NCBI GenBank assembly: GCA_964636225.1
Contig: CAZWQM010000003.1
Span: 66,172-130,171 of the forward strand
Direction: 5' to 3'
Length of the DNA stretch: 64,000 nt
From: an uncultured Thiotrichales bacterium
Lineage (GTDB): Bacteria; Pseudomonadota; Gammaproteobacteria; UBA4575
Part shown: in pieces, positions 5,119 through 53,116 of the stretch
Layout of the letters: every line of letters starts with the position of its first letter
How positions within the stretch are numbered: the stretch's first letter is position 1
Notes under the pieces: model-generated
Database searches by the model: none
The model's input: the letters and a program-made list of their open reading frames with translations, nothing else
Told to the model about the DNA's origin: nothing
Translations under genes and position numbers: made by a program

Positions 5119-5217
5119 AGGCATGTGGTAGTATCTCGCCAGCAATACTTTTGTCCAGTTGGGCAAAAGTAATTTTTTAGTTAGCAGTTCAGGTGTCTCC
5201 TTTTAGTTTTTAAAAGA

Positions 5218-5380
5218 GAGATGAAACAGGGAATCTGGTGAAATACCAGAACTGCCCCCGCAACGGTAATCAAGTCTAAATAAACAAACATGTCACTGCA
5301 TATTTATGTGGGAAGGCTGTTTATTTATTAGTCTAGTTAAAGACAAAAAACTTGGAAGCCCGGAGACCGGCCTGAGACTG
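5218..5380 (+). ncRNA. cobalamin (adenosylcobalamin) riboswitch in the btuB leader
   Basis: The core GGGAATCTGGTGAAATACCAGAACTGCCCCCGCAACGGTAA is present. A B12-box GGAAGCCCGGAGACCGGCCTG lies downstream and closely parallels the E. coli btuB leader AAGCCCGAAGACCTGCC. A CACTGC...GGGAAGGC pairing is also present. Confidence 0.8.
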
Positions 5381-5517
5381 CGCGGCAAATTGCGGTGGGC
5401 AATTCGGGCTGCTTGGACCACACTCGCTTGATAACAAATATCAGCACGTAAGATAGTGTGCGTCTTGCGCATTCTATAGTCACCGCGTTTGCTCAATTGT
5501 CCAATTAAAGGGGAACA

Positions 5518-47411: not shown

Positions 47412-47705
47412 ATGTCTAAGAAACTTGAACTTAAGCCTATCGCTGCAGCCGTTGGTGCTGCTTTAACTGCAAGTGTTATTACTATGCCTACAGCGAATGC
47501 TGATGCGAACCCATTTGGTATGACTGATCTTTCTTCAGGCTATATGGTTGCTGAAATGGAAGAAGGTAAGTGCGGCGAAGGTAAGTGCGGCGAGAAAAAA
47601 GCTGAAGAAGGTAAGTGCGGCGAAGGTAAGTGCGGCGAAGGTAAGTGCGGCGAGAAAAAAGCTGAAGAAGGTAAATGTGGCGAAGGTAAGTGCGGCGAGA
47701 AATAA
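47412..47705 (+). CDS. secreted Cys-Gly repeat precursor peptide (EGKCG-repeat, HvfA/bufferin-like candidate RiPP metallophore precursor)
   Basis: A Sec signal peptide with a predicted ...TANA|DA cleavage site. The C-terminal 49 residues are EEGKCGEGKCGEKKAE-type repeats, and all 7 Cys sit in G-K-C-G. A DUF692/DUF2063 pair lies downstream. Confidence 0.75.
   Translation: MSKKLELKPIAAAVGAALTASVITMPTANADANPFGMTDLSSGYMVAEMEEGKCGEGKCGEKKAEEGKCGEGKCGEGKCGEKKAEEGKCGEGKCGEK
47561..47700 (+). repeat. coding tandem repeat of a 15-nt unit GGTAAGTGCGGCGAA (about 8 copies with variants, organised as 45/60-nt super-units)
   Basis: A direct read of the DNA shows gaagaaggtaagtgcggcgaaggtaagtgcggcgagaaaaaagct repeated with one extra 15-nt unit in the second copy. 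Confidence 0.9.
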
Positions 47706-47772: not shown

Positions 47773-47810
47773 GGTCTACTGACGGCAGGCACTTGAATTA
47801 GGGCCTGCCG
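47773..47810 (+). terminator. rho-independent terminator after the precursor gene
   Basis: A perfect 8-bp stem CGGCAGGC / GCCTGCCG with a 12-nt loop, followed by TTTTTTATTT. Confidence 0.7.
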
Positions 47811-47867
47811 TTTTTTATTTGAGATCTACTATTTATAATAACTGTTCGGCTGCGGCCGAGATCCAAA

Positions 47868-49378
47868 ATGCAAATGCATGAACTATCAGGGTTTGCTATG
47901 ACAACGCTTGAGATTCTGGCGTTTTCATTTATTTTCACTCTTGGTGCAGGTGTTATCTTTGTGGCGGTTTTATATATTATCGACCGCTCCCAAACCAAAC
48001 ATGCTATCCGCCATAATTATCCTGTTATTGGCCGATTTCGTTATTACTTTGAACATTTAGGTGAATTCTTTCGCCAGTATTTCTTTACCCTGGACCGTGA
48101 GGAATTGCCTTTTAACCGAGCGGAAAGAAGCTGGGTATACCGCGCGGCAAAAGATATCGATTCGACTGTTGCATTTGGTTCAACAAGAGATTTATACAAG
48201 CCTGGCACAGTGATCTTTGGCAATTGTCTATTTCCGAAATTAAGCATTGACTCTGCCGAGCCGGAAGAAGTCACCATCGGGCCTTACTGTAGAAATCCTT
48301 ACAGCACACGTTCTATCTATAATATTTCCGGAATGAGTTATGGTGCTATTTCTAAACCTGCCGTGCTGGCTTTATCCAATGGCACACGTGAAGCCGGTTG
48401 CTGGTAAATACCGGTGAAGGTGGCCTATCTCCTTATCATCTGAAAGGTGGCGCTGACATTGTATTTCAGATTGGCACGGCCAAATATGGTTTACGAGATG
48501 ACAACGGTCATTTAAATACTGAAAAATTAAAGTCGATTGCGGCTCATCCACAGGTAAAAATGTTTGAGCTTAAATTAGCACAAGGTGCCAAACCCGGGAA
48601 AGGCGGCATACTGCCAGCGGCCAAGGTCAATCAGGAAATTGCTGCTATACGTGGCATCCCCGTAGGTACAGACTCGATTAGCCCAAACCGACATATTGAT
48701 GTTAATTCGATTGATGAATTACTCGATATGCTGGTTTCGATTCGCGAAACGACTCAAAAGCCAGTGGGTTTTAAAACCGTTATCGGTACCCGCCAATGGG
48801 TCGATGATTTATTCAGCCAAATTAATGAACGTGGCATCGAAAATGCCCCGGACTTTATCACCATTGACAGCGGCGATGGCGGCACCGGTGCCGCGCCAAT
48901 GAGCCTGATGGATAATGTAGGCTTGCCGATTAAACAAAGCCTGCCTTTTATTATTAATAAATTAAACCAGTATAAATTACGCGAGCGTATAAAAGTGATC
49001 ACATCGGGTAAACTTATCACTCCTGTGGAAGTCGCCTGGGCATTAGCCACAGGGGCCGACTTTATTGCTTCTGCACCCGGCTTTATGTTCTCGATTGGTT
49101 GTATTCAGGCCATGCAATGTAATAAAAATACCTGTCCAACCGGCATAACGACACATGATAAAGACTTACAAAGCGGGCTTGATCCACACAATAAAGCAAT
49201 TCGTGTAAGGAATTATGTCAAAAACATGGTCTATGAAGTAGGTATGATCGCTCATTCCTGCGGCGTGGTAGAGCCGCGCCAGTTGCGCCGACATCACGCA
49301 TACATTGTAAGTCCTCAAGGAAGATCTATACCACTGGACGAGCTATATTCCGCAGAAGCCACTTACATGCATACATAA
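47868..49378 (+). pseudogene. FMN-dependent glutamate-synthase-domain oxidoreductase (GltB-domain-2 / YerD-like, N-terminal membrane anchor) split by a -1 frameshift at about nt 48403
   Basis: ORF 47868..48407 ends ...GMSYGAISKPAVLALSNGTREAGCW*. ORF 48398..49378, in the -1 frame, continues (L)VNTGEGGLSPYHL, giving the conserved junction AGCW-VNTGEGG. The break is at a GG run that would restore the frame if it were GGG. Downstream the motifs GxxSGDGGTGAAP and TCPTG are intact. Confidence 0.7.
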
Positions 49379-49405: not shown

Positions 49406-50020
49406 GTGATAAGCATTATTCATTTCGTAAATACTATTTTTGACAAACTACGTGCTTTGGATTTTCTGGGCCCGTTAGCACTACGATTATATTTGGTTCC
49501 TATCTTCTGGATGGCAGGCACTCATAAAATCGACTTCTCAACTTTTATGCCTTTTGAATCTACCGTCAGCTGGTTTGGAAATCCAGACTGGGGACTGAGG
49601 CTGACTTTCCCTGCCCTGATGGCATTCCTGGCGGGCTGGACTGAAGTGCTTGGTGCAATTTTTTTACTGGTCGGTTTTGGCGTACGCTGGATCTCCATTC
49701 CCTTAATCGTGACTATGTTGGTCGCTATTTTTTCCGTTCATCTCAGTAACGGTTGGTTAGCCATTGCATCTGGCTCCGGTATGTTTGCCACCGAACGCAC
49801 TATGGGAGCCATTGAACGCCTGGATGTTGCCAAGGACATTCTAAAAGAACATGTAAATTATTCATGGTTGACAGAAAATGGAAGCTTCGTGGTACTCAAT
49901 AACGGTATTGAATTCGCCACCACATACCTGATTATGTTACTGGTACTATTTTTTATAGGTGCGGGAAAATACTTCAGCGTGGATTATTATTTAAGTCTGG
50001 TGAATCCAAGACAGAACTAG
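49406..50020 (+). CDS. DoxX-family membrane protein
   Basis: Four hydrophobic helices in DoxX-like spacing. It sits directly upstream of the DUF692 gene, as in other DUF692/DUF2063 clusters. Confidence 0.6.
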   Translation: MISIIHFVNTIFDKLRALDFLGPLALRLYLVPIFWMAGTHKIDFSTFMPFESTVSWFGNPDWGLRLTFPALMAFLAGWTEVLGAIFLLVGFGVRWISIPLIVTMLVAIFSVHLSNGWLAIASGSGMFATERTMGAIERLDVAKDILKEHVNYSWLTENGSFVVLNNGIEFATTYLIMLLVLFFIGAGKYFSVDYYLSLVNPRQN

Positions 50021-50067: not shown

Positions 50068-50928
50068 ATGATGACTAATCAATATTGTGTCAGTGGCGCG
50101 GGACTGGGACTCAGACGCGGTCATATGTTTGAGGAGTTGCTGGAAAGCAATCCGGCACAAATCCAGTTTATGGAAGTGGCACCTGAAAACTGGATAGGAA
50201 TGGGTGGCCGGCTGGGCAAACGTTTTCGCCAATATACAGAGCGCTTTGACTTTGTCACACATGGTTTGTCCTTATCCATTGGCGGGCCAACACCACTCGA
50301 TATCAATCTTGTAAATGACATCAAAGCCTTTATGCAACAGCATAATATTCTCAAATACACTGAACATTTAACTTATTGTTCAGATCAAGGCCATCTTTAC
50401 GACTTAATGCCTATTCCGTTTACTTCTGAAGCCGTTAAATATGTTGCCGATCGAATTAAGCAGGTTCAGGACATTCTTGAGCAGCGCATCGCAATGGAAA
50501 ATGCATCCTATTACGCCGCGCCCGGCAAAGAGATGGAAGAAATTGATTTTCTCAAAGCGGTATTAGAGGAAGCCGATTGCGAGCTGTTACTGGACGTAAA
50601 TAACATTTATGTAAATTCTATTAACCATGGTTACGACCCGGTCGAGTTCCTGGTTTCATTGCCAAAAGAACGCATTTGCTATTGTCATATCGCCGGTCAT
50701 TTCAATGAAGCCGAAGATCTTATCGTAGATACGCATGGCGCGAATGTGATTGATCCGGTCTGGTCTCTGCTGGATAAGGCTTATGAAGTATTTGGTGTAT
50801 TCCCAACCTTGCTGGAGAGAGATTTCAATATTCCCAAATTACCTGTGCTGATGCAGGAAGTGGATCAAATCTGTCAGTTGCAGGAAAAATGGTCGTCCTA
50901 TACCCGCAAGGCAACATCTCATGCCTGA
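50068..50928 (+). CDS. DUF692-family enzyme (MNIO: multinuclear non-heme iron oxidative enzyme; MbnB/HvfB/TglH-like peptide maturase)
   Basis: 286 aa with a TIM-barrel family pattern: GLGLRRGH ... FMEVAPENW ... THGLSLSIGG ... EHLTYC ... MENASYY ... LLLDVNNIYVNSINHGYDP ... CHIAGH. These are the conserved His/Asp/Glu metal ligands of the family. Confidence 0.8.
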   Translation: MMTNQYCVSGAGLGLRRGHMFEELLESNPAQIQFMEVAPENWIGMGGRLGKRFRQYTERFDFVTHGLSLSIGGPTPLDINLVNDIKAFMQQHNILKYTEHLTYCSDQGHLYDLMPIPFTSEAVKYVADRIKQVQDILEQRIAMENASYYAAPGKEMEEIDFLKAVLEEADCELLLDVNNIYVNSINHGYDPVEFLVSLPKERICYCHIAGHFNEAEDLIVDTHGANVIDPVWSLLDKAYEVFGVFPTLLERDFNIPKLPVLMQEVDQICQLQEKWSSYTRKATSHA

Positions 50929-51688
50929 GTCTGCACAAAAATTTAGAGATGTGCAGTATCAATTCACTGCACACATAAGGGATCCTGAAAAGAATCCGGC
51001 GCCTTCAAATATTGAAGATCGGCGCATGGAAATTTACCGTGGCCTGCTCTATCGCAATGTAGAGAATTTTTTATCTACCGGCTTTCCTGTTACACGCAAA
51101 TTATACAGCGAGGAAAACTGGCATAAAATGGTCAGGGACTTTTTCGCAACACACAAGAGTCATTCGCCTTACTTCAAAGACATATCAAAAGAATTTTTAA
51201 TTTACTTGAATAAAGAACGTACAGCACAAAAAGAAGACCCGGCTTTTCTGTGTGAATTAGCGCATTATGAATGGCTGGAGATCATGTTGTCCTTTCTGGA
51301 TGCTGATATCGACTGGCCTAGTATCAATAAAGACTGCAACCTGATGGAGAGCATCCCCGTATTAACACCTTTTATGCAGCTCAATCAATACGATTATCCT
51401 GTGCATAAAATTAAACCAAACTTTCAACCACAACAGCCTTCAGAGCAGCCAACTTTTATTTTAGTCTACCGCGACCAACAGGACAGTGTAGGCTTTATGG
51501 AAATGAACCCGATGACAGCGCGACTGGTTGAATTGCTTTCAAACAATGAAAGTGAGACGGGCGAGCAAATACTATTAACCATAGCGAAAGAGATACCTCA
51601 ACTTGCTAAGGATGTGATTATGCACGGCGGTCATTCCGCCATGATCCAGCTACGTGAAAAAGATATTCTGCTTGGCTGTAAAAAATAA
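50921..51688 (+). CDS. DUF2063-family partner protein (MbnC/HvfC-like RiPP maturation protein)
   Basis: The N-terminus FRDVQYQFTAHIRDPEKNPAPSNIEDRRMEIYRGLLYRNVENFLSTGFPV is the characteristic DUF2063 opening. It overlaps the DUF692 gene by 8 nt, suggesting translational coupling. Confidence 0.8.
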   Translation: MPESAQKFRDVQYQFTAHIRDPEKNPAPSNIEDRRMEIYRGLLYRNVENFLSTGFPVTRKLYSEENWHKMVRDFFATHKSHSPYFKDISKEFLIYLNKERTAQKEDPAFLCELAHYEWLEIMLSFLDADIDWPSINKDCNLMESIPVLTPFMQLNQYDYPVHKIKPNFQPQQPSEQPTFILVYRDQQDSVGFMEMNPMTARLVELLSNNESETGEQILLTIAKEIPQLAKDVIMHGGHSAMIQLREKDILLGCKK

Positions 51689-52726: not shown

Positions 52727-52961
52727 GTCATCCTTCCTTATCGTTGTCAGCAGCTGATGGATAATTACTCAGCCAATACTAAAATTTCTTAATGACATTA
52801 TCTCTTTATTCAATCCATATGAAAACTGGCCCAGTCAAACAATATTGATAAACGTGTAAATAATTCACTCATTAAGGTGCATATAGTGGGTTATGTTATT
52901 ACATTGTGCTTATTTACTAAGCACAGGAGATAGAATCGAAATCAGTAAAGATTAAGACTCA

Positions 52962-53116
52962 TGCTGTTTGATAAAATCACGGATAAAACGTCGGATCTCT
53001 CTCGCGGCACTGGTATCCAGATCATCACATAATGAGACAAATTCATCCCGCTCTTTTTTGTGAATGCGAATCACTAGCTGGCTGTTTTTATTTTTATTTT
53101 TTGCTTTATCGCTCAT
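52962..53116 (-). CDS. unlisted 51-aa ribbon-helix-helix-like small protein (it falls below the ORF-track length cutoff)
   Basis: The reverse-strand translation is MSDKAKNKNKNSQLVIRIHKKERDEFVSLCDDLDTSAAREIRRFIRDFIKQH*. The stop is the TGA at 52962-52964. It has a basic N-terminal beta-strand and then two helices. A perfect palindrome, ATATACA-A-TGTATAT, lies about 25 nt upstream of its start (about nt 53140-53154). Confidence 0.45.

Follow-up and report, generated by a model that had tools for sequence, protein, structure and literature searches.

The stretch of DNA considered here, termed the window (64,000 nucleotides in all; 44.6% GC), contains a gene cluster of the HvfA/oxazolin-type MNIO operon, in which an EGKCG-containing precursor is encoded together with HvfB, HvfC and HvfX. 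The original prediction had placed the gene addressed below within a RiPP operon and, indeed, the precursor was recognized by the HvfA-family model NF050137, while HvfX, HvfB and HvfC likewise scored above the cut-offs of the corresponding NCBIfam models (Table 1). When considered with the strict HvfA equivalog model NF050188, the precursor scored 59.4 bits, under the cut-off of 95. All four core genes are shared with the hvfX-hvfA-hvfB-hvfC operon of Haemophilus influenzae (PMC11252979) and with Buf_EGKCG/oxazolin clusters (PMC12452194). Unlike the H. influenzae operon, however, the window contains a fifth gene, encoding a GltS-like flavoprotein, between hvfA and hvfX. According to the available portions of the published descriptions, HvfA/oxazolin and Buf_EGKCG clusters comprise four-gene cores, with rare extras being limited to oxidored_molybd and ferric-reductase genes (PMC11252979; PMC12452194). 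In the same manner, PF01645, the Pfam family to which the flavoprotein belongs, goes unmentioned in those portions of the text and supplements of the MNIO landscape, HvfA and thiooxazole papers that were available (PMC11252979; PMC12452194).

Table 1. Positions in the window of the fragmented gene, the operon around it and other features
Feature	Position	Strand	Description
Cobalamin riboswitch	5175..5389	+	RF00174, 108.3 bits
hvfA	47412..47705	+	Signal-peptide precursor with EGKCG repeats (oxazolin/HvfA RiPP metallophore); NF050137 (KCGExKCG_twice), 54.6 bits, cut-off 19.5
Hairpin and U-run, intrinsic-terminator-like	47781..47818	+	-22.5 kcal/mol, z -4.17; 1/200 shuffles folds as well
5' fragment of GltS-like FMN/3Fe-4S gene	47868..48407	+	179 codons; premature TAA at 48405-48407; N-terminal TM helix, linker, first barrel elements
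Frameshift site TGG/TAA	48402..48407	+	1 nt present in all orthologues is missing between 48404 and 48405
3' fragment of GltS-like gene	48404..49378	+	-1 frame; 324 homologous codons; mechanical ORF from TTG 48398
hvfX	49406..50020	+	DoxX-family membrane protein, ORF intact; NF050144, 215.5 bits, cut-off 80
hvfB	50068..50928	+	MNIO (DUF692) maturase, intact; NF003818, 440.8 bits, cut-off 360; PF05114, E 3e-102
hvfC	50921..51688	+	DUF2063 / NGO1945_C partner protein, intact; NF050145, 304.6 bits, cut-off 142
54-aa ORF	52952..53116	-	Between idh and rimO

Between hvfA and the flavoprotein gene lies a hairpin, with a TTTTTT run directly 3' of its stem. Having a loop of more than 8 nt, this element was missed in a scan for consensus terminators and was recovered by folding. 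Probably, the hairpin attenuates or terminates transcription within the operon and so would set the precursor-to-enzyme ratio, with precursor transcripts being in excess. The EGKCG repeat region of hvfA itself varies among same-species assemblies (contigs L008, L010 and L011), with products of 97, 97 (one EKKAE spacer having become EGKCG), 82 and 72 aa being on record; this reflects either real repeat-number polymorphism or the collapse of repeats in short-read assemblies. As to hvfC, in one locus on a TARA scaffold (L003, 8161..8778), the gene was called as encoding 205 aa lacking a Pfam hit, while HvfC comprises 257 aa in three loci (L001, L002 and L004) where the flavoprotein is identical to that of L003. 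The short L003 version may correspond to an assembly gap or a frameshift.

The fifth gene was encountered not as the single uninterrupted ORF of some 500 codons that typifies its family but rather as two ORFs, the first of 179 codons and the second, spanning 48398..49378 on the + strand, encoding 326 aa. The first ORF ends with GCC GGT TGC TGG TAA (...REAGCW-stop), while the -1 frame, read from 48398, presents TTG CTG GTA AAT ACC GGT GAA GGT GGC, corresponding to LLVNTGEGG. A frame scan revealed 48392..48407 as the only stretch that is open in both frames, such that the shift is confined to these 16 nt. Addition of one base after 48404 yields a protein of 503 aa in which residues 125-466, a span that includes the junction, match Pfam PF01645 (Glu_synthase; 287.6 bits, gathering threshold 20.4; E 2e-85). 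This repaired protein recovered 48404-49375 at 100% identity in a tblastn search and, among the best 120 of 8000 homologues scored, aligned with 503-aa proteins over their entire length (100% coverage; top identity 87%). Hence, given the effect of the one-base repair, the PF01645 match and the colinear single-chain homologues, the original assignment of the two ORFs as halves of one enzyme gene, here a PF01645 gene, is confirmed, with the agreement going far beyond what chance would give.

The nature of the intact protein was considered using the AF2 prediction (pLDDT 75.6) for an orthologue sharing 86% identity, in which a TM helix spans residues 3-41 and the position of the break falls inside the barrel strand comprising residues 179-181, just ahead of the invariant NTGEGG loop. 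PF01645 (E 2e-85) is common to the repaired protein and the synthase domain of GltB (PDB 1ea0, 2vdc, 1ofd, 7mfm), as are the SGEGG, QGAKPGxGG and GGTGA(A/S)P motifs and the C-x5-C-x4-C-P cysteines. Among solved structures, the closest relatives are the FMN/3Fe-4S synthase domains of glutamate synthase. In phmmer, residues 150-453 of the repaired protein matched glutamate synthase 2vdc_A (1.6e-29), while Foldseek comparison of the orthologue model returned glutamate synthases 7mfm and 1ofe (E ~5e-18; TMq 0.62). Unlike GltB, however, the protein stands alone, comprises only ~500 aa, begins with a TM helix and has no glutaminase, central or beta-helix domain, nor was a GltD partner found nearby. 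Moreover, the protein scored 123.5 bits against the GltB equivalog model NF008730, aligning with profile positions 861-1161 of 1490, with the four-domain architecture being absent. As this score is far under the cut-off of 1047, the protein is not a glutamate synthase. The intact form is instead predicted from its motifs and the orthologue model to be a membrane-anchored GltS-type FMN TIM barrel with a putative iron-sulfur motif. A search of the literature found no functional study of a stand-alone "FMN-binding glutamate synthase family protein."

Comparison of orthologous loci, as suggested together with the original prediction, revealed one intact gene in each rather than two separate genes. 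Specifically, five syntenic loci, in which the order dcd-LEA_2-mrp-metG-fer4-nth-hvfA-glu-doxX-hvfB-hvfC-idh-rimO is shared (common to all five from dcd through cobB), contain an intact gene, encoding 502/503 aa, between hvfA and doxX. An identical protein (P0012) is encoded in four of the five, with a second orthologue (P0003) being encoded in the remaining one. When the window was aligned with these five orthologues at the DNA level, exactly one gap column was obtained, straight after TGG; the corresponding sequence in the orthologues is TGG ATG AAT. Among the best 120 of 8000 homologues scored, 119 are 497-540 aa long (nearly all being 497-518 aa) and one comprises 429 aa. In neither these 120 homologues nor 85 loci of other species was a gene split at the break point seen in the window.

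The identity of the lost base could be addressed in the same manner. The original prediction held that one G should be added at 48403-48404 and, whereas a one-base repair indeed restores the frame, G is not the base that best accounts for the site. Insertion of G would introduce valine at position 180, and valine never follows W179 in the best 120 of 8000 homologues (M in 100, Q in 10, I in 5, H in 3, L in 2 and V in none); as such, G was rejected as the best reconstruction. The codon that follows TGG in relatives is ATG, ATA or TTA, and never GTA. Most likely, judging from these alignments, the lost base was an A, from a codon of the ATG or ATA type. Since the proposed "G-run" is merely the GG of the tryptophan codon, with the site not being homopolymeric, the deletion does not appear to be a G-run slip. 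At the junction, the deletion allele reads TGGTAAAT, while an allele retaining the base would read TGG-N-TAAAT. An intact allele from the same species was sought by scanning JGI metagenome contigs with GCCGGTTGCTGG-N{0,1}-TAAATACCGGTGAAGG. All five hits contained the extra base, yet all proved to be distant homologues without blastn similarity to the window and so were discarded as same-species alleles; in the distant homologues sharing TGGNTAAAT, N is A in four and T in one.

The deletion is not limited to the window. The identical junction, TGCTGGTAAAT, was found in nine further contigs from nine samples that are 99.7-100% identical to the window, namely, Logan contigs from SRR15213105, SRR15213107, SRR15927517, SRR15927518, SRR15927527 and SRR24791495, and ENA contigs from ERZ27257198, ERZ27257200 and ERZ27275788. 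As the ENA ERZ assemblies may share runs with some of the Logan contigs, the firm minimum is three independent run series, together with the NCBI record. The pipelines also differ, with the k141_ names of the ENA contigs suggesting the use of MEGAHIT. The junction-bearing contigs represent two haplotypes that are five SNPs apart within the gene, and records from other sources include identical products of 179 and 326 aa. Alignment of the independent assemblies with the window revealed no gaps over 16 kb, pointing to high indel accuracy. No full-length protein more than 87% identical to the repaired protein was found in the protein collection, as judged from the best 120 of 8000 homologues scored, while exact look-up of the HvfB and Dcd products of the window returned no record. 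The deletion is thus real and is shared by all recorded assemblies of the species in which the site is covered.

To assess selection, the window was compared with 15 contigs of the same species and SNPs were counted. Nonsynonymous and synonymous changes stood at 5:1 in the split gene (pN/pS 1.48), as compared to 13:34 in 18 neighboring genes (pN/pS 0.11) and 1:7 in hvfB and hvfC, which are counted within the 18 (pN/pS 0.04). Considered separately, hvfB showed one nonsynonymous and three synonymous changes and hvfC none and four, respectively, reflective of purifying selection in both. The difference between the split gene and its 18 neighbors (Fisher p=0.014) involves only six SNPs and so is suggestive rather than overwhelming. 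The changes in the split gene were polarized against the best 120 of 8000 homologues. R404P is derived in the haplotype of the window, with arginine being found in 120/120 of these homologues and retained by haplotype 2, while S464F is derived in a same-species contig (L006), with serine being found in 120/120. A397D is derived in haplotype 2, alanine being present in 110/120. In addition, the window carries A173T at a position where alanine is found in 120/120 of these best-scoring homologues, as well as V209L and L416M at sites that are at least 97% conserved in the same set. In total, four conserved-site violations were counted in the window, relative to a median of one among the best 120 of 8000 homologues, such that the invariant residues of the family are not all maintained. 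The earlier claim that all other motifs are intact accordingly holds in part. The 3' fragment keeps NTGEGG, QGAKPGKGG, DGGTGAAP and the CX5CX4CP cluster motif, with C412, C418, C423 and P424 all in place, but R404P and A173T alter invariant residues.

Over longer times, the gene has diverged as did its neighbors. Identity of the repaired protein stands at 86% with one orthologue type and at 84% with the other, similar to the values for metG (87.5% and 86%) and hvfB (84.5% and 87%). A three-taxon count detected no excess of unique substitutions on the branch leading to the window, so that long-term acceleration, and with it degeneration begun long before the deletion, was rejected. This normal long-term divergence argues for the lesion being recent and for the gene having been under normal constraint until lately, in line with recent inactivation, one of the options initially raised. 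The deletion is older than the split of the two haplotypes, which are ~0.3% apart. The neutral ratio of substitutions now seen is suggestive of a gene in decay.

Taken together, these observations are very probably best explained by the genuine, recent and species-wide loss of 1 nt, which inactivated an accessory gene of the RiPP operon and left an ordinary pseudogene. The ancestral operon would have had the order hvfA-[GltS-like gene]-hvfX-hvfB-hvfC and would have encoded a membrane-anchored flavoprotein of ~500 aa. Loss of one base right after the Trp179 codon, within a core beta-strand, would have led to an immediate TAA, with both halves then gathering substitutions at a neutral ratio following this recent event, as hvfA, hvfB and hvfC presumably stayed under purifying selection. 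Since the core RiPP machinery is still constrained, the flavoprotein would be an accessory component that is dispensable in the operon. The view that an accessory gene was genuinely inactivated and could be spared, already put forward in the original prediction, is well supported by the reproducible deletion, the intact orthologues, the elevated pN/pS ratio and the constraint on hvfB and hvfC. Loss of function and dispensability of the protein for peptide maturation are presumed on these same grounds. In most respects, the gene resembles ordinary lineage-specific frameshift pseudogenes, namely, in the single-base deletion, the immediate stop, the intact orthologues, the later neutral polymorphism and the recent origin. 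It is unlike them only in its place, as being flanked on both sides by the conserved genes of a RiPP operon renders it a natural knock-out.

Alternatively, the two fragments could both be produced and associate to give an active flavoprotein of two chains, with ribosomes that terminate on ORF1 reinitiating on ORF2 at TTG 48398. Fragmentation can be tolerated by TIM barrels, the TTG lies 7 nt 5' of the ORF1 stop, as is typical of translationally coupled genes, and neither fragment carries further stops or indels in any of the 10 sequences. Still, such an arrangement is unlikely, with the population signature weighing most heavily against it. The high pN/pS ratio extends over the fragments, with invariant or conserved sites being altered (R404P, S464F, A397D), and the break falls within a predicted core strand (E179-181) adjoining the invariant NTGEGG. 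Moreover, the TTG is not preceded by a Shine-Dalgarno-like sequence, and no such split is seen in the best 120 of 8000 homologues or in the 85 loci of other species. Some expression of the C-terminal fragment from the frame that opens at TTG 48398 and overlaps the ORF1 stop is nonetheless conceivable.

Programmed -1 ribosomal frameshifting, or other recoding at TGG-TAA, that yields some full-length protein is far less probable still. The shift needed is indeed -1 and occurs at a stop codon, and a stop codon at a shift site can enhance frameshifting. The site is also identical in all sequences of the species, although the frameshift-bearing sequences are nearly identical throughout, such that its persistence is uninformative as to selection for a frameshift. 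Against such recoding, GGT TGC TGG TAA contains no X XXY YYZ slippery heptamer, Trp-tRNA moving from UGG to CUG would pair at just 1/3 positions, and the 66-nt and 93-nt stretches downstream are folded no more stably than shuffled sequences (z -0.40 and +0.37, respectively). Furthermore, orthologues encode the protein in a single frame, polymorphism is neutral-like, and GG is too short for transcriptional slippage. The original prediction had ranked programmed -1 slippage as the less likely option, and the lack of a heptamer, of downstream structure and of conservation, together with the neutral-like polymorphism, agrees with that ranking. Finally, no assembly artefact is commoner than the loss of a single base, and a metagenome-assembled genome may be the source of the window. 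Even so, the homopolymer sequencing error first raised, with the true genome containing an intact gene, is barely credible, as the same deletion recurs in the nine other contigs, across at least three run series and different pipelines and in a second haplotype with five SNPs in the gene, as the site offers only GG, rather than a homopolymer, with the lost base probably being A, and as not a single indel discrepancy was found elsewhere over 16 kb.

With the gene thus being considered an inactivated accessory component of the operon, the distribution of its intact counterparts was addressed in a census of 80 species-representative loci (L015-L094) encoding members of the GltS-like clade at 61-71% identity. 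Adjacent doxX, hvfB and hvfC genes were found in 12/80 loci, doxX only in 6/80, hvfB and/or hvfC without doxX in 4/80 and none of the three in the remaining 58/80. As such, the GltS-like gene lies beside HvfX or hvf genes in 22 of the 80 species loci. For the six doxX-only loci, for which flanking regions were fetched, one corresponds to a short contig and in another the DoxX match is a small fragment. EGKCG-type precursors are encoded in at least 8/80 loci, and the gene orders encountered include hvfA-glu-doxX-hvfB-hvfC, as in the window, and hvfA-hvfB-hvfC-glu-doxX. The original description of the FMN oxidoreductase as an unusual extra therefore does not stand, given how, in many Gammaproteobacteria, the gene recurs beside DoxX/HvfX and hvf genes. 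A search of the literature on MNIO, DoxX and HvfA in combination with glutamate synthase, FMN or PF01645 found no report of this association. Other recurrent neighbors, outside hvf contexts, encode an acetolactate-synthase-like TPP enzyme (11 loci), a Na+/H+ antiporter-like membrane protein (8 loci), a GGDEF protein (8 loci) and a 144-aa protein that is always upstream of the GltS-like gene (8 loci), these labels having been read from example sequences, without a Pfam scan.

What is documented here is thus a five-gene HvfA/oxazolin operon in which a GltS-like FMN/Fe-S membrane protein is encoded beside HvfX, an arrangement that recurs across Gammaproteobacteria and that was not found in the available portions of the MNIO and bufferin surveys. 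While the frameshift itself is ordinary, the operon variant and the natural knock-out are of modest interest. The natural knock-out suggests that the core HvfB/HvfC chemistry can proceed without the flavoprotein, and possibly without HvfX, and provides a concrete handle on the role of DoxX/HvfX in such clusters.

Polymorphism in hvfX bears on this point. Here, four nonsynonymous and no synonymous SNPs were counted (p=0.0095 relative to the flanking genes). G65R, P67T and G150V are derived changes in the haplotype of the window and W56C is derived in a same-species contig (L010), with all four affecting positions conserved in 17 homologues. Because all four changes are nonsynonymous and derived at conserved positions, selection on HvfX may have been relaxed, and one may speculate that this followed the loss of the adjacent flavoprotein. 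Considered more broadly, the GltS-like FMN/Fe-S protein and HvfX could have formed a coupled redox module, perhaps quinone-linked, that served as an accessory of the HvfA/oxazolin operon, with loss of the flavoprotein having relaxed constraint on HvfX and left hvfB and hvfC constrained. This proposal, for now a tentative one with the odds against it, links the two proteins because DoxX is the commonest conserved neighbor of the GltS-like gene (19/80 loci), with six of those loci showing neither hvfB nor hvfC in the flanking regions retrieved.

In a syntenic relative (L005, 7543..8142), DoxX is only 52% identical to that of the window, as compared to 83-93% for the products of its flanking genes and 87% for the DoxX of L001, and contains 70 lineage-unique substitutions. 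This suggests that hvfX was either replaced in this lineage or has evolved there very rapidly.

Two further features of the window were recorded. Beyond hvfC, the 54-aa ORF (beginning MSDKAKNKNKNSQLVIRIHKKERDEFVSL) occupies the same position in all related loci; its product, for which a Pfam scan gave no hit, may be a small regulator of the ribbon-helix-helix-like type. In terms of structured RNA, an Rfam search identified no rRNA in the window, with the cobalamin riboswitch being the sole match.
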